A stretch of DNA of 64,000 bases from an uncultured virus (IMG/VR IMGVR_UViG_3300021958_000021) (lineage: Duplodnaviria > Heunggongvirae > Uroviricota > Caudoviricetes). The notes below the pieces were generated by a model, which was not told the origin of the DNA, did not search any database, and saw only the letters and a list, made by a program, of their open reading frames with translations. A program made the translations under genes and the position numbers. The DNA is taken from positions 1-64,000 of the IMG/VR virus record IMGVR_UViG_3300021958_000021; one strand, written 5' to 3'. Below are positions 4,966-42,270 of this stretch, piece after piece. Numbering within the stretch: position 1 is the stretch's first letter; the number at the start of each line of letters is the position of its first letter.

Positions 4966-5377
4966 ACTGTATCATGTTATGGGAGGAAGGCATACCCTAT
5001 AATACTGGCGGCTTCAACCTTGCTTTATTTAAAGTTAATGCCCTAAAATAGGAGGTTTAAAGCGATTTCATTCAACTCTACATAAATAAAAAATTTTGAA
5101 ACAAAGCCATATGGTTGTAGATTATGCTTTAGGGGAATAAAATAAATATAGGTCTATATATACGATATAGGCTCCAAAGCGTCCTATGTTAAACAAAAAA
5201 CTATAGAACGCATTACGCAACCCTTCAAACATTGTTTATAAGCCTCTAACCCCTTTTGATGACGTTTCACCCCTAGTCAATATATATAGATGCCTAATCA
5301 ACAAAACCATATGGTTGGCTTTGCCAGTGATTTAACGTAACCCCACAGAAGAGGGGCTACGGGGGGAATTGGAGACA

Positions 5378-5884
5378 TCATTCCTCTTCTTGACCTCCTT
5401 CGTCGGCTTTCACCGCAGGTGGGGTCATTGATGGGATTTCACCGTTCATGGTTCCATCCCAACGACCTTCTTTGTAGCCCTTAACGAGAGCATCATAGGC
5501 CTTTTTGCCCATTGACTGAGCAAGTGCCTCAATATCCTCAAAGGCTCCACCAGTTCGCCCATGAGGGAGAATAACGGTAGTAATCAAGTCAGCGTTAGAA
5601 ATACCCGCAAAGGCAGCAACGACCATATTCTTCACAGAAGCCGCAGACAACTCTACTTCTTCGGGCAAAGACGATTCTCGGCCTCGGCGGGCGACTGGGA
5701 AATCGTCATAAGGACTCCCAATTGAGCGAATTGCTGTCCAATAAGTTGAGCGCAATTCATCGCTTTCCGTTGCATTTCCAAGTGTAATAGAAAGAGAAAT
5801 CGCATTACCGACATCTCCCCTATCTTCACGGTCTAGCCATGCTAGAACCGCATTCGTGTTCTTTATCCAATTTTTCGCATTCAT
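5378..5884 (-). CDS. Paralog family protein A (unknown function)
   Basis: Shares LTLG.A..DELRSTYWTAIRSIGS, RRGRES, PHGRTGG and KEGRWDG with 7043-7567; GGAGG RBS. Confidence 0.85.
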   Translation of the reverse strand: MNAKNWIKNTNAVLAWLDREDRGDVGNAISLSITLGNATESDELRSTYWTAIRSIGSPYDDFPVARRGRESSLPEEVELSAASVKNMVVAAFAGISNADLITTVILPHGRTGGAFEDIEALAQSMGKKAYDALVKGYKEGRWDGTMNGEIPSMTPPAVKADEGGQEEE

Positions 5885-6040
5885 GATAATCAATCCTCCA
5901 ATAAAGGTTTTGATGCTCCGTTTTCCCCCCGAAGCAACCCAACCTTACAATATCCTATAAGGTTGTTTTTATGTTACACTCGCAAAGCGAAAAACAACCA
6001 TATGGTCATATCTTTGAGTAATGACCCGAAGGCCGCCAAA

Positions 6041-6280
6041 TTAGGCAAAGGCTGCCTTTTCAGCACATTCGTTGCAATAGTCGGCAATAATCATCAATTT
6101 GTCGTAACTGCAGCCCCAAAGGAACTCTAAGGGGTTTCGCTGGAATTGAAGCCACTTGAGTTCATTGTAGCGTTCATCGGGGCTATTTGGGAATAGAAGT
6201 TCAATGAAATCGAATTTGTTTAGGCGGTTGAGAAATTTCAAGTTATCAAGGTAGTGTCCGAGGATATTCCAGTTTATCAT
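6041..6280 (-). CDS. Hypothetical protein, probably leaderless
   Basis: ATG ~22-25 nt downstream of an AACCTTAAAT TATA-like box; ends at a small TTCG-loop hairpin. Confidence 0.65.
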   Translation of the reverse strand: MINWNILGHYLDNLKFLNRLNKFDFIELLFPNSPDERYNELKWLQFQRNPLEFLWGCSYDKLMIIADYCNECAEKAAFA

Positions 6281-6496
6281 GCCTAAAGCCACAAATGGCG
6301 CTTAATTTAAGGTTATACCAAAGCATTACCATATGGTGTTGCTTTGCTATAACCCAAGTGGGACGGGAAGAATTACCTCTTTTCTTCCCGCCCCCGTCTA
6401 TCCCTCTATTCCCTGTTTATTTGGGTCATAGTGTCAAGACGAGAGGCTCTTGACTTTCGGGCCGTTTTTGGGGTGCTACGGACTTCATGCCGCATT

Positions 6497-6709
6497 TTAT
6501 GAGACATTGTATGAACGGATTTTATGAGGGTAGGGAACGCCCCATATAAACTCATGATTCTCTTTGAAGGCTTTGATGAAGCGGTCAGCGTCAAAACGCT
6601 CATTATCACGACGGAACATGATAATAAAGCGTTCAATGACGGGAACATTAATACCGCCCAATTCTGCTAGGGTTTCTGCTATTTTTTCGTAGTGCCTTCG
6701 TTGGAACAT
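6497..6709 (-). CDS. Small phage-type hypothetical protein (RRHYEKIA...NERFDADRF)
   Basis: ATG ~22 nt downstream of an AACCTTATAT box. Confidence 0.7.
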   Translation of the reverse strand: MFQRRHYEKIAETLAELGGINVPVIERFIIMFRRDNERFDADRFIKAFKENHEFIWGVPYPHKIRSYNVS

Positions 6710-6800
6710 GATTAACCGCTTGATAAGCACATATAAGGTTTTATTACCAAAGTATGCAACCATATGGGCTTACTTTGGGTATAATGGCCCGAAGGCTCGC

Positions 6801-6917
6801 TTATCGCTCAGATTCGTGAGCAGAATCAAGATAAGCAAAGAATCCGCACCTTTTACATTCATAACATTCATTTTCGGGGTCAAACTCCATTTTTCCACAC
6901 ATACCCGGACAAAACAT
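6801..6917 (-). CDS. 38-aa Zn-ribbon microprotein MFCPGMCGKMEFDPENECYECKRCGFF...
   Basis: Below the ORF-track cutoff; fills the cassette between sites 6760 and 6979, with an AACCTCATAT box upstream and a CTTCGG hairpin downstream. Confidence 0.6.
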   Translation of the reverse strand: MFCPGMCGKMEFDPENECYECKRCGFFAYLDSAHESER

Positions 6918-7042
6918 GATTAACATAAAAATTGGCTGATATGAGGTTGCAGCGTTTCACTATAATCAAAGTATGCAACCATATGGTTAGGCTTTGCATT
7001 AACCCCCCGAAAGGGGCCACAAGGGGGGAAAACCTTGCAGAA

Positions 7043-7567
7043 TCACTCTTCCTCGGAACCTCCTTCCGATTTGCCCGTATTTACAGGCGGTGGCGTGATT
7101 TGGGGAACTCCGTTGTTATCAACGGTGAGTCCATCCCAACGGCCCTCTTTAATGGCCTTAGTCATGTAGGAATGAGCCTTTGTGCGGTAAGAATCAACTA
7201 AATCGCTAAAAGTCTCATAAACGCCACCGGTTCGTCCATGAGGCACAATAACGGAAAGAATCATGCTTTGGTGTTCAGTAGGGATTTGAGCAATAGCATG
7301 AGCCACACTTTCCTCCACAGTCGCCAAAACAAGTTCCTGTTCCTCCGAAAGCGCAGATTCTCGCCCTCGTCGTGCCGCAGGAAAACCCTCCATAGTGGAG
7401 CCAATTGAACGGATAGCCGTCCAATAGGTGCTTCTTAGTTCGTCCGTAGCCGCATTGTCGCCCAAAGTGAGCGATAGCAACACAGCATTCAAATTGTCGG
7501 ATTTGGGTTGATTTTCAGCCCACGCCCGAACCTTGTTCGTGTTCAATGTCCAATTTTTCATCTTCAT
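7043..7567 (-). CDS. Paralog family protein B (unknown function)
   Basis: Start at MKMKNW after a GAGGTGA RBS; clearly homologous to 5378-5884. Confidence 0.85.
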   Translation of the reverse strand: MKMKNWTLNTNKVRAWAENQPKSDNLNAVLLSLTLGDNAATDELRSTYWTAIRSIGSTMEGFPAARRGRESALSEEQELVLATVEESVAHAIAQIPTEHQSMILSVIVPHGRTGGVYETFSDLVDSYRTKAHSYMTKAIKEGRWDGLTVDNNGVPQITPPPVNTGKSEGGSEEE

Positions 7568-7729
7568 GTTTTTCACCTCGTTTTTAAAGTGTCTCCAAGT
7601 GTTTTCCCCCCTTGAAGCACCAAACCCCATGCAATAGCATATAAGGTTGATTCCATGCAAAGCAGTAATCAACCATATGGTTGCACTTTGTAGAAAGCCA
7701 AGAATAATCGCACCTGTTTGATGAATATC

Positions 7730-8020
7730 ATGCAAAGCGTGTTCGTCGTCCAAATCTGTGAATTGCCCGCCAAATACCCCGAATGGAAAACTCAACTCCA
7801 ACACGGAATCTTCCGTCGTCGTGAGGAAGCCGTAAATGCCATGCTCAATTTCATGGCTCGCAAAATGCGAGACGGTATTGATGAGATTCGTGAAATGTCC
7901 TCCACCAAGCGAGGCAAGGGCCTTGCCGACTACAACCGCAAAGTGGATGAAATCGTGGTGCAAATCCCACGCTCAATTCGTGTCCACGAATTGCCTCTCC
8001 GAGACAATCGGGGGTATTGA
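7730..8020 (+). CDS. Hypothetical protein in an inverted-orientation cassette
   Basis: ORF fills the 7673-8068 unit and is followed by a GGGGGCTTCGGCCCC hairpin; start could be 7721. Confidence 0.7.
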   Translation: MQSVFVVQICELPAKYPEWKTQLQHGIFRRREEAVNAMLNFMARKMRDGIDEIREMSSTKRGKGLADYNRKVDEIVVQIPRSIRVHELPLRDNRGY

Positions 8021-8114
8021 CCAAGATGGGGGCTTCGGCCCCCTCTTGGGCCTTAACAAAGATACGACCATATGGTAATGATTATGCTTTGCACTTAATT
8101 AGAACCATATAAAG

Positions 8115-8637
8115 GCTACACCATAACGGACAGGGAAAAGCCTACATTGGTCTTTTTTGCGCTAATTTGTCCGTTATGGTGGGTGAATAAAAGAAACGCC
8201 GCCTACTCCATGCATATCCGACTAACTGCTCCTACTTTGTTTCCATTTTGCCATGTCCCTAGGAACCGTGTCAATTTGTTGCTTTCGGGTCTTACTGCGC
8301 TGTGTTTCGGCTTTGTTTCCGATTGGTGTTTATGGCCAATCAACCAAGGGAATGTGAAAAGGTGGGATGAAGAATTGGGTATCTTCAAGTATGATACGAT
8401 TGGGTCGCACTCACTTTGAACGCTCTAATTGTCTTAAGAGCCATACTGCCGATTTCATGAAGTTGGTTTGTAGCCAACCGCCTTTTGAGCCTTAATCACT
8501 TTCACAGGGAACAATTACTCCATACCACTTGGTCGTCATAACTGCTTTGTGTCCCACAACAGGAGAAATCGCCCATTACCCCCGTTCAAAGGGCATTAAT
8601 GGTAATCCCCTCCGAGGGGAGCGACCCCCCGAAGCAA
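8115..8637 (-). ncRNA. Putative ~500-nt structured non-coding RNA
   Basis: No credible ORF; same promoter and TGCTTCGGGGGG start as paralog A; several nested and long-range inverted repeats (see findings). Confidence 0.5.
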
Positions 8638-8745
8638 TAGAACCTCATGGTTAGCAGATAAGGTTGTTAATGTGCAAAGCAATCATCAACCATATGGTAA
8701 TGCTTTGTAATACCCTAAACAAATATGATATTGTATATTAGAACC

Positions 8746-8988
8746 ATGTCAAGAGAGATTGTGAACCTGCTATGCCAAACCTTTCCTAAAATCCTTCAGC
8801 CTTTTATGGAGAAGCAATTTAACCAAGCCATTATCACCGATATGCACTATGTTGATGAACCTCACGCCATGATTGCTCTTATTATTTTTGAACAATCATG
8901 GGCGGGATTTGCTGAGGCTATGACCCATCAAGCGATGATGGATATGATGGACATAGCATTATCCAAGTTTCAAGAGGATATGGCTTAG
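8746..8988 (+). CDS. Hypothetical protein
   Basis: Fills the 8690-9021 unit; CTTCGG hairpin right after the stop. Confidence 0.65.
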   Translation: MSREIVNLLCQTFPKILQPFMEKQFNQAIITDMHYVDEPHAMIALIIFEQSWAGFAEAMTHQAMMDMMDIALSKFQEDMA

Positions 8989-9149
8989 GCCGCCCTTCGG
9001 GGTCAAAAAACAAAGCATGACCATATGGTTTGAAAACATCAAAGAGAGAAGAATCTTCTTATTTAGCCGTAGTCAATGCAACTGAAATAGGGATAATTTT
9101 CAGCCCCCGAAAATCCGTCAGTTTTGACAGGGTGTTCCCCAACTGTGGT

Positions 9150-9515
9150 TATATTAATTCGTATTCATATTCTAATATTCAATATTAGTATTATATTAAA
9201 CAAAAGTGGTTGTCTCATGGTCGGGAGGGTATGAGACGAGACAACACATGAAAGAATCATTAAGGTTGTGTAACATAAGTATAGATTTATTATATATTTC
9301 TCATTATCTCATCTATCTCATCTATCTATCTATCTTCTTCTTCTTCTCTTACATAACCCCTTATATTCTATGGGGTATGGAGAGAGAAAGATTCCCCTTT
9401 TGTGATGAGACGAGACGAGACAACCTTTTTTTGCGGGTTTCCGCAAAGTTCTAAGGGGTTGTGTTGCATAACCTCATTGTCTCAAGATGAGACAACAGGC
9501 GAGACAGTCTCATGT
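9150..9515. other. Candidate replication origin (AT-rich tract plus GAGAC/GTCTC iteron-like repeats)
   Basis: AT-rich 9150-9205; around ten GAGAC/GTCTC copies in both orientations plus TCTCA variants; lies at the strand switch. Confidence 0.45.
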
Positions 9516-9698
9516 GTCGTGCCGACAAAGTTATTTCAATGGGCAAACTATTGTTGTAAATAAAATCTATTTGTTTTAACAAAACGATTAACTAACCAAT
9601 TAGTTAAAATAACAAAAGTGAAAAATACTTGCCCTGCCAAACTCGCCTTAGCAAAAAGTTGGTAATTCCTCCAAGTGAAGTGCATTCGGAGGCATTTC

Positions 9699-9715
9699 TG
9701 GACTCCTTTATATAC
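9699..9715 (+). promoter_or_regulatory. Archaeal-type promoter GGACTCCTTTATATAC (copy 1)
   Basis: TTTATATA box; identical 16-mer at 18172. Confidence 0.65.
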
Positions 9716-9765
9716 CTCAAGACAACTGTTGAGAATACCCCGCAAAGGGGAAGGAGTTAGATAAT

Positions 9766-10239
9766 ATGGATAACACAGCATGGGATTCACTTGTCATTGA
9801 AGTGAACGAATACCTTGAAGCCGACCAGACGCTTGACGCAGGATTGCGCCAAGTTGTTGAATTGAACCTGCAAATCGGGACGAACAACCCTGATGAGCGA
9901 ACTGCCGCCGAAGGTGCTTTAAAAGCCCTTTTGCGAGGCCGTGACGGAACCCCGTTCCGCCGTGGACAAAAGAGCGCAGTTCCCGCATCTGTTCGTGTCG
10001 CTATTGACCGAATTTGTGGCGTTGTTGAAGAAGCCTCCGTTGCTTACTACAACCACGACACCATTATCGGTGCAATTACGATGAAGCACATCAAATCTGG
10101 CGGTGGAGCCTTTGATGACGCAGAAGATTACGCTTCTGCCGTTGTCAAGAGAACCCGAAACAATTTGAGCAAAATGTTCAAAGACGGTTCTTGGGATGGT
10201 TCGGTTGATTCCCTTTTGGGCGAATCGGACGAACTTTGA
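9766..10239 (+). CDS. Paralog family protein C (diverged)
   Basis: RRGQKS, HIKSGGGAF and KDGSWDG match paralogs A/B; GGAG RBS; hairpin cluster downstream at 10268-10365. Confidence 0.8.
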   Translation: MDNTAWDSLVIEVNEYLEADQTLDAGLRQVVELNLQIGTNNPDERTAAEGALKALLRGRDGTPFRRGQKSAVPASVRVAIDRICGVVEEASVAYYNHDTIIGAITMKHIKSGGGAFDDAEDYASAVVKRTRNNLSKMFKDGSWDGSVDSLLGESDEL

Positions 10240-10778: not shown

Positions 10779-10862
10779 GCTGAGATGGCTGAGTTTGGTT
10801 AAAAGCGCAGGGCTTAAACTCCTGTCCTAAACGGTTCGCAGGTTCAAATCCTGCTCTCAGCA
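10779..10862 (+). tRNA. tRNA-Leu(TAA)
   Basis: Acceptor stem GCTGAGA/TCTCAGC, anticodon arm CAGGG-CTTAAAC-TCCTG, long variable arm, GGTTCAAATCC T-arm. Confidence 0.9.
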
Positions 10863-35695: not shown

Positions 35696-36913
35696 ATGGA
35701 CGAAAACATGAAAGCAGAAATTGAAAAAAGCGCACAATACATTGGTATGAGCGTTGAAGAAGCGACGAGCAAGTTTGAAGAGATTTGTTCCGAAAACAAC
35801 ATTGAAACCACTAACCCCATTTCAAGGGGTCTTTGGCGTAACTATGTTGCGAATGTGCGAAGAACACAAGATAGCGGAGATTCATCCTCAAGTAATGATT
35901 CTTACTACAAAGCAGCATTTGGTTTCTTTGTTTCCCTTGATGCCCCTAGAGACATGATGGCTTGGAATCGCATGAAGGCAAAAGAAGAGTTTGTGCGTGA
36001 TGCTGATAATGCCCTTGAACAAGGTATTGTTGCTATTGCATCACAAAATGCACTTGGAAAGTGGGTTGTTTCCCGCTATCACAACGGAGAATACGGTGAA
36101 AAGACTGTTTCAACGCTTCCTTCTGGTGCAGAAGAAGCAGAAGATGGTCGTTTCTTTATTCCTTTGGATAATACCGCAACTTACATGAATGGTGGTAAAA
36201 ACAACAATTACGGGAAACCTCTTCCCGCAGAACAAATGCGAAGAAGTGGTGTTTTCTTCGGCTCTATTGGACAAGGAGAAATGAAGCCTTACTATTTCTC
36301 TTACAAAAATGATGCAGGTGTTCAATTTGCCCCAAACACTTTTGAATGGGTGCATTTCCTTTGTATCGCTAACGACAACGGGACTGATATTTATGGGGCT
36401 AAGGATTTGACTTTGAAGAGTCTTTCTCTTAACTCGGAAATGAATCCCGAAAACGAACTTTATCGTGATATGTCGTCTTTTGACTTTGAGGATTGTTTGC
36501 GTGAGAACTTCTCTTCTCATCTTGTTCCTCTTGTTGATATGGATAGAGCGCATATTGAGCGTCAAGCCCTTCCTTCTAAAGAGCGTTATGTGATTACTGA
36601 CGGAACTGTTTGTAATATGAACATGACTCCTACAAAGAACGGAAACAGAATCATTAACCTAACTGACTTAAATGCAGAAATGGACTATGATTCTGAATCA
36701 ACGGGTATTACTACCTGTTGGATTCCCGAACATTTGACTCTTGATTTCGGTATTGGTTCTTCCATTATCGTTATTGGGCGAACTAGTCAAAGAACGACTG
36801 ATGAAGGAGTTGAGCCAGTTACTATCAATGTTGCTGGTCTTTACTGCGTTATTCGTCATGGTTCGGCAGTTGAAGTTTCAGTTCCAGTTGAAGAGGATTT
36901 TGACTGGTTTTGA
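35696..36913 (+). CDS. RPA/SSB-like OB-fold ssDNA-binding protein
   Basis: Beta-rich C-terminal OB-like region, acidic-aromatic tail EEDFDWF, position within the replication module. Confidence 0.6.
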   Translation: MDENMKAEIEKSAQYIGMSVEEATSKFEEICSENNIETTNPISRGLWRNYVANVRRTQDSGDSSSSNDSYYKAAFGFFVSLDAPRDMMAWNRMKAKEEFVRDADNALEQGIVAIASQNALGKWVVSRYHNGEYGEKTVSTLPSGAEEAEDGRFFIPLDNTATYMNGGKNNNYGKPLPAEQMRRSGVFFGSIGQGEMKPYYFSYKNDAGVQFAPNTFEWVHFLCIANDNGTDIYGAKDLTLKSLSLNSEMNPENELYRDMSSFDFEDCLRENFSSHLVPLVDMDRAHIERQALPSKERYVITDGTVCNMNMTPTKNGNRIINLTDLNAEMDYDSESTGITTCWIPEHLTLDFGIGSSIIVIGRTSQRTTDEGVEPVTINVAGLYCVIRHGSAVEVSVPVEEDFDWF

Positions 36914-36995
36914 TTAAAACCACCTTTTGTGTAGTCGTTGGCGTTAATGACGGCCATAGAGGTGCGAAGCCTCTAGTTTTTAAAAAGGTGAAAAT

Positions 36996-39134: not shown

Positions 39135-40814
39135 ATGATAATTAGTAAAATGAATGATGGAATGAGAATATATAAATCTTGGAGAGAAAACGGAGAGAAA
39201 AAACATGAAATTGTTTCCTTTAGACCTTACTTCTATGTTTTACAAGATGAACCTGAGCGACCTCACTATAAACCTACTAAATATCTTACTAGGGATTTTG
39301 AGTATCAGCGTGGCGATTGGGTTAATCTTGCGGGACAACCTTTGAAAAAAGTATTTGTTGAGTCAGCACAAGATATTAGGAACGCTAAGAATGAGTTTAG
39401 GGAAACCTATGAAGCCGATGTTCCTTTTCACTTTCGGTATTGTGTTGATGAGTTAGATGAAATGCCCGAATATAAACTGCGTAAGTGGTATTGGGATATG
39501 GAATGGGCGCAAGGTGGAGACTATCACGACCAATTGACTACTATTGTTGTGTATGATAATTACGACGAAGAATATATTCAATGGGTATGGTTTCCTGAGA
39601 AAATGCACATGAAACCTTCATTTCCATATGAAGAAATTTCTACGCCCCCTAACGGCCTTGTGCGTTTCTTTCCGTCAGAAAAAGAAATGATTGAGAATTT
39701 TATGAACACTATGATTGTTAAAGACCCCGATATGTTAATTGCTTGGTTCGGTCATTTTGCTGATTTACCAAAGTTATTTGAACGGGCTTGTGCGGTGGGT
39801 CTTGACCCTCGTATTATTTCACCAACTGCAACAGTTAAGGGAGTAAAATCTGTAAAAGATGGCTATGAGTTTAAATATTCGGAGAAAGGTTTTTCTCCAA
39901 TTGAACAACCTATTGGCGGGCGAATTACTCTTTCTTTGGACTTAGCATTTGAAAGACAATGGAATGATTCTCAAAGAGGAACATTACCTTCTCTTTCTCT
40001 TGATTATATCGGTGAAACTGTTCTTGGTAAAAAGAAGTTAGTATCGGAAAAGTTTCCTGACCCTAACGATTTTTACCGAAGAGCATGGCTTGAAGATACA
40101 GCAACTTATCTTAAATATGCTTTAAGAGATGTTGAATTAATGGTTGAAATTGATGAGAAGAACTTTTGTAGTGAAGCAATTGTTTCTCTTCAACGATTAC
40201 TGAAAGCACCATTTGATGCTTGTTTTTATGCTTCTCATATGGGTTCTATTTACTTTATGCGAAATGCTGATTGGAAAGCACCAACAGGTAGTAAAGTAGA
40301 TAAAAGACAAGAATATGAAGGTGCTATGATTTACGACCCACTAAGCGAAGGAACCAATGGTTTGCACCTTAATGTAGCCGCTTTTGATTTTGCTGGTCTA
40401 TATCCTTCAATGATGATTGCACGAAACATTTCTTGGGAGACAAAATCTGTTGAGCCAACTGAGTTTGGAGTTAATATTCTAACTCCTAGAGATTTCAGCG
40501 ATGTTAAACATGAACAAGTGCTATATTACAAAACAGACAAACTCGGCTTGTTGCCGAGAGCCGTTCTTGAGTTGAAGGAACTCCGCAACGAATATAAACG
40601 ACTGATGCGAGAGGCGAGAGAAACGGACAATGGCGAATATGCGAAGTGGTATAACAATCAAATGGCTGTTAAGAGATTAATGGCTTCTTTCTATGGTATT
40701 GTTGCCTTTCAAGGATTCGGTTGGGCTGATGTTGATTTAGCCGCAAGTATCACGGCCAGCGCAAGAGAAGCAATTAGATTAGCCGCATTTGCAGCAAAGG
40801 AGATGGAAATATGA
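39135..40814 (+). CDS. polB: Family B DNA polymerase, N-terminal part (exonuclease plus motifs A and B)
   Basis: WDMEW, YALRDVE, YEGAMI, FDFAGLYPS, KRLMASFYG; ends before motif C. Confidence 0.92.
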   Translation: MIISKMNDGMRIYKSWRENGEKKHEIVSFRPYFYVLQDEPERPHYKPTKYLTRDFEYQRGDWVNLAGQPLKKVFVESAQDIRNAKNEFRETYEADVPFHFRYCVDELDEMPEYKLRKWYWDMEWAQGGDYHDQLTTIVVYDNYDEEYIQWVWFPEKMHMKPSFPYEEISTPPNGLVRFFPSEKEMIENFMNTMIVKDPDMLIAWFGHFADLPKLFERACAVGLDPRIISPTATVKGVKSVKDGYEFKYSEKGFSPIEQPIGGRITLSLDLAFERQWNDSQRGTLPSLSLDYIGETVLGKKKLVSEKFPDPNDFYRRAWLEDTATYLKYALRDVELMVEIDEKNFCSEAIVSLQRLLKAPFDACFYASHMGSIYFMRNADWKAPTGSKVDKRQEYEGAMIYDPLSEGTNGLHLNVAAFDFAGLYPSMMIARNISWETKSVEPTEFGVNILTPRDFSDVKHEQVLYYKTDKLGLLPRAVLELKELRNEYKRLMREARETDNGEYAKWYNNQMAVKRLMASFYGIVAFQGFGWADVDLAASITASAREAIRLAAFAAKEMEI

Positions 40815-41376: not shown

Positions 41377-42270
41377 ATGAAAGTAGTATATGGACACACA
41401 GATTCAATTTATGTGCAAATTGATTCTGTTGAAACTGCTGAATCTGCAATTAAGCAGATTGAGGCAAAAGTGCGAGAGCATTTTCCTAATGTAATGGGAC
41501 TGGAAAATCATCCTGTTGTTCTTGAATTTGAGAAATACTATTCTGCTTTGGGTGTTGGAACAACAAAGAACCGCAACGCTGGATTAGTTTCTTGGGAAGA
41601 TGGAGAATGGTTAGATAAGCCAAAGTTTAGTATGACTGGTTTTACTGCAAAGCGTGTTAGTGAAACTAAATTAGCAAAAGAAGTGCAAACTAATACTCTT
41701 AAAATGTGGGTTGAACAAAAATCTTATGCAGAAATTACTAAGTATTTGCATGAAACCTTTAGCGCAGTAAATAACGGTGAAATTCCTCTTGCTTCTATTA
41801 TTAAGAGAAGTCGTCTAAGACAAAACAGATTTACTGTTAAATGCCCCGATTGTAACACTAAATATAATTTAAGAAACTGTTCTACTTTACCGCACAAAGT
41901 TTGCGAAAAGTGCGCTACACCAACGAAGCAATTCACCACTCTTGAAGGAAAGAAACCTACTATTGGTTCAGGAATTGCTGGTGTTTTATACGCATGGGAA
42001 AAGAAAAACACTAATTTTGATGACTCTTATCTCTTCTTAAAAGTAAAGAGGGTAAATGATTTCTATACCCATCCTTTAACTCAAGAAAAGCGAGAAGTTG
42101 AATACTTATCAGGCATAACCTACGAGGATTTTGAGGGTTGTAGTCCCGATTGGGACTTCTATTCTCAACAGGTGGTTAAGAAGGCCGACCCTATTTTCAA
42201 GGCGATGGGGTGGGATATAGCGTCTATACGGACGGGAAAAATACAAGCAAGCCTTGACGAATGGTGGTGA
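41377..42270 (+). CDS. polB: Family B DNA polymerase, C-terminal part (motif C plus thumb)
   Basis: YGHTDSIYV, LEFEK, KNRNAG, G...KR; inserted CPDC...CEKC Zn finger. Confidence 0.9.
   Translation: MKVVYGHTDSIYVQIDSVETAESAIKQIEAKVREHFPNVMGLENHPVVLEFEKYYSALGVGTTKNRNAGLVSWEDGEWLDKPKFSMTGFTAKRVSETKLAKEVQTNTLKMWVEQKSYAEITKYLHETFSAVNNGEIPLASIIKRSRLRQNRFTVKCPDCNTKYNLRNCSTLPHKVCEKCATPTKQFTTLEGKKPTIGSGIAGVLYAWEKKNTNFDDSYLFLKVKRVNDFYTHPLTQEKREVEYLSGITYEDFEGCSPDWDFYSQQVVKKADPIFKAMGWDIASIRTGKIQASLDEWW

Follow-up and report, generated by a model that had tools for sequence, protein, structure and literature searches.

A structured non-coding RNA gene with a probable manA-type domain in a putative group-B magrovirus

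Known manA RNAs and the RNA of the window

The manA RNA is a riboswitch candidate from marine and cyanophage sequences that is commonly located in the 5' untranslated regions (UTRs) of genes, as given in the available part of its description (Weinberg et al., 2010; PMC2864571). It has been an orphan candidate since then, and no ligand for it was found in the literature we searched. According to the accessible part of a recent preprint, manA RNAs shorter than 200 nt form closed assemblies of 60, 10, and 8 subunits in vitro through intermolecular kissing loops, making cages that consist of RNA only (Ren et al., 2026; bioRxiv 10.64898/2026.07.01.735769). Here we describe an RNA gene of about 520 nt on the minus strand of a viral DNA, IMG/VR record IMGVR_UViG_3300021958_000021. 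The record is 184,733 bp long, and its first 64 kb, the whole stretch of DNA that was analysed, are called the window. A sequence-only reading of the window had proposed that one small cassette has its own minus-strand promoter and encodes a large structured non-coding RNA. The lack of a conserved frame, strong covariation in 38 distinct full-length homologs, a strand signal from G-U pairs, and contigs from RNA libraries all uphold this central claim, and the cassette almost certainly encodes a real structured non-coding RNA.

The 5' domain of this RNA is very probably of manA type. We read it as an expanded, divergent manA-type RNA because of the matches of related loci to the Rfam manA model (RF01745), the alignment of one of them to that model, and the order of elements in a canonical manA. 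Eleven of 32 family loci match RF01745 over the whole model (36.9–53.8 bits, E 1e-6 to 1e-11), four further loci have weak manA scores (19.7–22.1 bits), and five complete related genomes gave a single weak hit (20 bits). In alignment A3, the window RNA is aligned over its whole length with seven manA-matching relatives (L076, L109, L125, L128, L120, L099, and L117). In the cmscan alignment of L120, model positions 1–192 are covered, with common hairpins, closing helix, and junction sequences, and with insertions of 86 and 33 nt. The canonical manA of Prochlorococcus phage P-HM1 scores 186 bits, carries a promoter-like site of its own, and has a terminator-like hairpin after it; compared by eye, its elements come in the same order as those of the window RNA. 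In the P-HM1 record (GU071101.1), a hypothetical coding sequence, PHM1_121 (112705–112881), overlaps most of the canonical manA (112740–112927), and this coding call is probably spurious.

Both the canonical and the window-type RNA have a 5' hairpin, a GGGNN/NNCCC closing helix, a hairpin with a UAAGGUG-like sequence after it, a hairpin with a GUGGUG-like loop inside a long helix, more hairpins, and CCCACCUU at the end, and both are marine and virus-borne. They differ in size, since the window-type domain has about 250 nt compared to 192, and in carrier, which here is a virus assigned to archaea and not a cyanophage. The domain is fused here to a second conserved domain of 175 nt, whereas none follows the canonical copy of P-HM1. 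It is also stand-alone here and not part of a 5' UTR, except that an open reading frame (ORF) follows in the class-2 loci described below. On these comparisons the RNA appears to belong to the manA family as a new, larger variant with two domains, which a putative archaeal virus carries as a free-standing gene, and does not form an entirely new class. The literature searched contained no report of manA-type RNAs in magroviruses.

The RNA looked unrecognisable to the sequence-only reading because the window's own copy escapes the Rfam manA model. That reading saw no signatures of RNase P, signal recognition particle (SRP) RNA, tmRNA, or introns, and Rfam agrees, since neither these models (group I and II introns included) nor ROOL and GOLLD matched and the region gave only noise at E <= 10. 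Unrelatedness to known families did not hold, as the 5' domain is a probable manA relative. The Rfam/Infernal search that it had suggested gave no hit for the window copy and a single family, manA, in the 32 relative loci. RNase P, SRP, 5S rRNA-like, and group I/II intron readings from known motifs were dropped for lack of an Rfam signal, and a T-loop reading of GUUCAAA was given up, since this sequence is one strand of a covarying helix. The ROOL, GOLLD, and OLE RNAs (500–800 nt) are ornate, often phage-borne, without assigned function, and homo-oligomeric in the available text on them (Nature 2025; PMC12286853), and tRNA genes lie near the RNA here. The window RNA matched none of their Rfam models at any threshold used, so the resemblance is in kind only.

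The second conserved domain, the core, stays constant across the family and lacks an Rfam match; in the 32 loci only manA was hit, always upstream of the core (E <= 0.5 or 1). A covariance model of the core (R1) gives the window copy 164 bits, a score that comes mostly from a sequence profile, as R1 carries 13 base pairs only. R1 also finds divergent core copies in two more magrovirus contigs (L024 and L017), in which the GCC/GGC helix is replaced by GGC/GCC, a compensatory swap. Compared to window positions 8191–8372, these copies (L024:5796–6003 and L017:7221–7427) keep the core and have a variable region that is 56–65 nt longer. Searches of cyanophages P-HM1 and S-H38 with R1 gave noise only (E 0.02–0.7). 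In the stem of the core hairpin at 8322–8348, the pair of columns 358 and 387 is UA in 19 sequences, AU in 16, and GU in 3. The GAA opposite AGUA between the closing helices of the core is, we assume, loop-E or S-turn-like, and the GA dinucleotide pair around a small hairpin in the inserted arm of the manA-type domain is presumably K-turn-like.

The core occurs in three arrangements. Class 1, the type of the window, consists of the manA-type domain, the core, and the terminal hairpin. Class 2 (seven loci) has a manA-type domain of different sequence with better Rfam scores, then the core, then a basic ORF. This ORF is conserved, encodes 75–92 lysine- and arginine-rich amino acids starting with MRKxQKxGL, begins 18–26 nt after the core, and is present in L136 (from 1642 onward), L082, L139, L110, L111, L104, and L135; no homolog of it was found in the whole source record of the window. 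Class 3 (two loci) has only a 5' hairpin and the core.

Fold, strand, and coding potential

Relatives of the RNA occur in marine metagenomes and in viral sequences. Related viral contigs of 92–96 kb were found through neighbouring proteins. Profile searches placed the family in 63 of 65 marine metagenome loci that had been fetched by a 21-base two-motif pattern and, among 35 viral loci retrieved with a looser one-motif pattern, in 11, with nhmmer family profile scores of 184–548 bits. The remaining 24 viral and two metagenome stretches are non-members by profile, and three pattern matches in bacterial genomes (an Actinomycetota MAG, a Muribaculaceae MAG, and Reichenbachiella) matched neither the family profile nor R1 and are read as chance matches. 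The 67 full-length hits include 38 distinct sequences, which make up alignment A3, and the core alignment (A4) has 47 distinct sequences. A blastn search of the region against 50,697 phage records gave no match. In the available part of a catalogue of 8,495 candidate viral RNAs (Fremin et al., 2023; PMC10690425), the family's contig numbers are absent from supplement files 3–6. Its table has 29 "Euryarchaeota" occurrences; the 27 covered here are all candidates of 35–94 nt (19 marine and eight not), and pieces of this RNA may be among the catalogue's candidates.

Covariation carries the evidence for the fold. We took the RNAalifold pairs and added the 5' hairpin, the terminal stem, and, in the core, one hairpin and four pairs, which gave a structure of 105 pairs. 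On the 38 distinct full-length homologs, 93.9% of its positions are paired, compared to 77.4% in shuffles, and 69 of the 105 pairs have compensatory changes on both sides, a count reached by none of 500 shuffles. RNAalifold by itself predicts 102 pairs (52 compensated) from 10 sequences and 80 pairs (49 compensated) from 38 sequences. All seven pairs of the helix at columns 117–123/239–245 are compensated, and helices such as this leave little doubt of the predicted fold. The evidence is comparative, not thermodynamic: the folding energy of the single sequence is unexceptional (z = -0.72), and 27 of 100 shuffles fold equally well. The RNA is assigned to the minus strand because G-U cells (445) far exceed A-C cells (16) in the proposed pairs; pairing is 93.9% on this strand and 82.8% when the opposite strand is read. 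The covariation check that the sequence-only reading had called for is thus strongly positive.

The complementary strings listed in that reading are all present where it placed them, and about half of the individual helices built from them appear to be wrong when the homologs are compared. The pairing of CTTTGAACG (8414–8422) with CGTTCAAAG (8583–8591) stands, with 83.5% paired and six of nine pairs changed on both sides, as does the hairpin at 8462–8478 (98.7% paired, five of six pairs compensated). The perfect 14-bp stem proposed for 8119–8181 is kept in its inner 10 bp (82.8% paired, eight pairs compensated) and lost in its outer 4 bp (49% paired). GGGTCGC/GCGACCC (8402–8408/8621–8627) is 78.5% paired, but four of its seven pairs depart by breaking only. 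ATTACC/GGTAAT (8575–8580/8601–8606), which had been seen as a pseudoknot-like crossing, is in the wrong register, with pair 84–109 broken in 24 of 38 sequences. The hairpin at 8607–8619 is 65.8% paired with zero compensation, and that at 8321–8341 is found in the window as an alternative to a covarying helix with the same 3' arm. The supported pairing of 8414–8422 with 8583–8591, CUUUGAACG/CGUUCAAAG, joins a hairpin loop to the strand between two other hairpins and is therefore a pseudoknot or an intermolecular contact. Columns 198–201 of the 5' domain and 628–631 in the loop of the terminal hairpin are an extra candidate for long-range pairing, too short to claim.

No sign of a protein gene was found in the cassette. 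In the window copy, stop-free stretches reach at most about 106 codons in any frame, in line with the earlier statement that it holds no credible ORF. Eight relatives with 72–86% DNA identity have no common open frame, and the window copy has stops in all six frames. Across the 38 homologs, the longest stop-free stretches measure 57–125 codons, and their frame changes from one homolog to another. Column entropy by position modulo 3 is 0.727, 0.747, and 0.720 in the same homologs, so the coding-potential check that had been proposed gives no three-base periodicity.

The RNA gene looks expressed. Part of the stretch is present in 24 runs recorded as RNA, from 14 studies, each with less than half of the sampled words. 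Contigs from four runs in four studies cover 8361–8630, and three of them are identical to the window; such contigs indicate presence, not strand, ends, or level, and DNA carry-over is possible. The same contigs do not cover 6800–8360 and 8631–9900, which carries no weight as evidence.

Self-association and competing explanations

Self-association of RNA copies may be the working mode of this RNA. We propose that a stand-alone gene of a group-B magrovirus, with an archaeal-type promoter (8657–8680), is transcribed on the minus strand into a folded non-coding RNA of about 520 nt. The RNA would run from a 5' hairpin through an enlarged manA-type domain, with its long-range closing helix and covarying loop-to-strand pairing, to the 175-nt domain and an optional terminal hairpin. 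It would act as free RNA and not as the leader of an mRNA, and its copies would associate through exposed loops that are complementary to themselves or to each other and form base pairs, as ordinary manA RNAs do in vitro. Self-association is the best-supported mode of action, which we regard as possible and somewhat short of probable. The explanation as a whole (gene, fold, manA link, and self-association) follows its weakest part, and we hold it tentatively.

The candidate interfaces are found in both domains. The tip of the variable core hairpin is a perfect palindrome of 6–20 nt in all 38 homologs, and its central four letters switch among CUAG, CAUG, UAUA, and CGCG. In the 47-sequence core alignment, the palindrome-tip columns score as pairs in 85.1%, compared to 61.9% in shuffles; slid columns reach no more than 51%. 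These pairs include two adjacent columns, which are unable to pair inside one hairpin. The covariation of the tip fits pairing between two RNA copies, and it also fits a constraint on palindromes at the DNA level. With the assemblies in the accessible part of the preprint (Ren et al., 2026), the RNA shares its family, and the loop-to-strand pairing and the self-complementary loops are candidate interfaces here. The contacts named there are L5-L7', L8-L9', and L3-L8'.

Several points weigh against this explanation. No member of the family in the 32 loci attains the Rfam manA cut-off of 55.2 bits, and the window copy has no manA match at the gathering threshold or at E <= 10. The 105-pair structure was partly derived from the sequences on which it was tested, which flatters the control in which partners slid by 1–3 columns are 40–48% paired. 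Covariation cannot separate intramolecular from intermolecular pairing, and the palindromes could arise in DNA by template switching or cruciform-related constraints. The manA RNAs assembled by Ren et al. were shorter than 200 nt and were studied in vitro, assembly of the variant of about 520 nt would be an extrapolation from them, and "in vivo", "archaea", and "metagenom" do not occur in the accessible text of that preprint (10.64898/2026.07.01.735769). The seven class-2 loci have their small basic ORF 18–26 nt after the core, which is leader-like. The host is taken from literature on uncultured viruses, and the limits of the RNA-library contigs given above belong here as well.

A cis-acting, riboswitch-like leader would sense a small molecule through the manA-type domain, the core, or both and regulate downstream sequence; this is an unlikely explanation for the RNA. 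The listing of manA as a riboswitch candidate common in 5' UTRs, in the available part of that source (PMC2864571), favours it, as do the class-2 loci, where a GGUGAU-like site precedes the conserved ORF, and one 5' UGG with two alternative potential 3' partners in the core, a possible switch. Yet a riboswitch has its aptamer upstream of a regulated gene, and class 1 has no downstream gene. In the window and its 38 class-1 homologs no ORF lies 3' of the RNA, which ends at a hairpin, with the next junction palindrome after it; the gene beside it, at 7718–8020, converges on it. The core is also much more conserved and complex than usual expression platforms, no manA ligand is at hand from the literature searched, and the class-2 ORF has no counterpart in the window's record. 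Carriage by a virus assigned to archaea, the stand-alone gene, its enlargement with a second domain, and its presence in RNA libraries together argue against a simple 5'-UTR role. It is rather doubtful, and slightly less so than the leader, that the RNA is a monomeric scaffold or decoy for a host or viral protein, such as archaeal L7Ae or the class-2 basic protein. The K-turn-like GA/GA around a covarying hairpin in the inserted arm, the loop-E-like GAA/AGUA in the core, many invariant unpaired nucleotides, and the basic ORF adjoining the RNA in seven loci would suit protein binding. These K-turn and loop-E assignments are putative, however; the window encodes no protein partner beside the RNA, the palindromic tip would go unexplained, and manA relatives occur in cyanophages, whose bacterial hosts presumably lack L7Ae.

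The conserved pairings could also belong to DNA or to a transcript of the opposite strand, for example as a replication or recombination element of the cassette array. Cassette junctions and the hairpin tip are DNA palindromes, the latter a perfect one, and a promoter-like element aims into the gene from the other side. This reading is very improbable, since the many G-U pairs are tolerated by neither a DNA duplex nor a plus-strand RNA, RNA-library contigs lie on the region, and the 5' domain shares homology with a known RNA family. A hidden short conserved ORF or the remains of a protein gene has a still smaller, practically negligible probability: single homologs do have open stretches of up to 125 codons, but frames are not conserved, stops interrupt all six, codon periodicity is missing, and substitutions in helices are compensatory.

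The locus adds that the manA fold probably also occurs in viruses assigned to abundant marine archaea, as a free-standing gene with its own promoter, enlarged and joined to an uncatalogued conserved domain, with parts of it in RNA-library contigs of four studies. It offers concrete candidate interfaces for assembly, and it indicates that the Rfam manA model misses a sizeable branch of the family. The core may be a new RNA module without Rfam match that is found with either of two manA-type sequences or with the 5' hairpin alone. A further step, which we consider doubtful, is that the core and the manA-type domain together enable an archaeal virus to assemble a multimeric particle of RNA only in infected cells, where the palindromic tip and UGGCCA would supplement the manA kissing-loop network with two-fold interfaces. 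Such a particle would be a natural, virus-encoded RNA nanocompartment or scaffold. Since the same fold would occur in cyanophages, which infect bacteria, and in viruses of archaea, such a particle would not depend on host-specific machinery.

Cassette array, virus, and features of the locus

The RNA gene lies in a cassette unit at 8067–8698. Exact ACCATATGGT palindromes flank it at 8067–8076 and 8689–8698 with a spacing of 622 bp, which confirms the 622-bp unit described earlier. The window has eight exact ACCATATGGT copies, all inside 5306–9029, compared to a chance expectation of 0.09. This segment is an array of small self-contained cassettes with ACCATATGGT borders and CAAAG/CTTTG arms. 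Positions of the features are given in Table 1.

Table 1. Features of the RNA gene and its cassette in the window.
Feature	Position	Strand	Remarks
Whole RNA gene, about 520 nt	8119–8640	-	Putative ends from limits of conservation; covariation spans the range
Upstream cassette junction, palindrome ACCATATGGT	8689–8698	no strand	Invariant in flank of 38/38 aligned homologs
Putative promoter region	8657–8680	-	In RNA-strand order GCUUUGCAC, spacer, TATA-like AACCTTATC (8657–8665), about 24 nt before conserved RNA start
5' hairpin P1	8610–8634	-	8 pairs, 89.5% paired, 4 with two-sided changes; first hairpin of manA model
Expanded manA-type domain (probable)	8364–8609	-	Closed by GGGAU (8605–8609)/AUCCC (8364–8368); helices 2–15 90–100% paired, most compensated
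Hairpin loop, 5' partner of long-range pairing	8583–8590	-	At least six different complementary sequence pairs visible among homologs
Inserted arm, absent from short manA consensus	8503–8551	-	Helices 7 and 8 covary; CACA/UGUG pairing seen; the 86-nt insertion in the cmscan alignment
Strand between two hairpins, 3' partner of long-range pairing	8414–8421	-	Covarying
Second conserved domain (core)	8190–8363	-	Constant part of family; alignment A4, 47 sequences
Self-complementary UGGCCA	8332–8339	-	Invariant in 47/47; in loop of covarying hairpin 8322–8348
Core closing helices GAAAC/GUUUC and GCC/GGC around GAA opposite AGUA	8192–8320	-	Helices 17–18 of the 105-pair structure
Variable hairpin with palindromic tip (CCUAGG in window)	8251–8276	-	Perfect palindrome in 38/38
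Terminal hairpin, optional in family	8119–8181	-	Inner 10 bp covary; absent in 3/38 (L012, L123, L114)
Downstream junction palindrome (8067–8076), then promoter-like GCTTTGCAC, spacer, AACCATATAA (8103–8112)	8067–8112	+	Points into RNA gene

Promoter-like sequences are present on both sides of the RNA gene. The minus-strand promoter named in the sequence-only reading, GATAAGGTT, is the reverse complement of AACCTTATC and is indeed found at 8657–8665. AACCnTAT and GCTTTGCA are kept in columns 3–27 of alignment A3. The AACCnTAT element, which precedes the conserved RNA start by about 24 nt, is best read as a putative archaeal TATA-like box, a reading based on the magrovirus identity and on the spacing of TATA boxes to the start in archaeal promoters. 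The 5' end is set at the start of conservation at UUGCUUCGG, and the 3' end probably lies where conservation stops. The promoter-like element near 8103 has a layout identical to that of the RNA's own promoter and is a candidate antisense promoter. The neighbouring gene at 7718–8020 is convergent toward the RNA gene.

Two paralogous cassette proteins are encoded in the array, at 5378–5893 (minus strand, 171 aa) and 7043–7573 (minus strand, 176 aa), and neither belongs to a Pfam or PHROG family. The start that the RNA was said to have in common with the first of these paralogs, CCCCCCGAAGCA (reverse complement of TGCTTCGGGGGG), is present at 8625–8636 and recurs in the leader of the 5378–5893 gene. 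The leaders of both paralogs begin with UGCUUC(G/A)..GGGG and form hairpins, as the RNA does.

The virus appears, from its genes, to be a group-B magrovirus. The window encodes a split family-B DNA polymerase, ribonucleotide reductase, GroEL, an ATP-dependent ligase, a clamp loader, tRNA-Leu, and tRNA-Arg, the same gene set that the available part of the original description gives for group-B magroviruses of Marine Group II archaea (Philosof et al., 2017; PMC5434244). In that part the words "promoter", "non-coding", and "intergenic" do not occur. The nearest cultured relatives of the polymerase are haloarchaeal tailed viruses, at about 25% identity, and the virus probably infects archaea of Marine Group II. 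The polymerase is split into ORFs at 39135–40814 and 41377–42270 with a gap of 562 bp, as reported for group-B1 magroviruses, and Rfam at the gathering threshold finds no intron in this gap.

The source record is rated 100% complete, and it holds two collinear genomes of about 92 kb head to tail that are about 70% identical (65–89% in blocks), the second beginning near 92000–94000. It probably results from two strains joined during assembly or binning and is not one genome. The RNA is present in the first of the two only. At the syntenic place in the second (100237–100426, plus strand), R1 has a weak full-length match of 17.7 bits (E about 0.02), which is not counted as a member and may be a very divergent copy or chance. 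The tRNA genes at 10779 and 16825 are the sole hits in the window at Rfam gathering scores. ARAGORN also calls a 90-nt tRNA-Lys(UUU) at 36893–36982, where the Rfam tRNA model is silent; this call may be an intron-containing tRNA or false.

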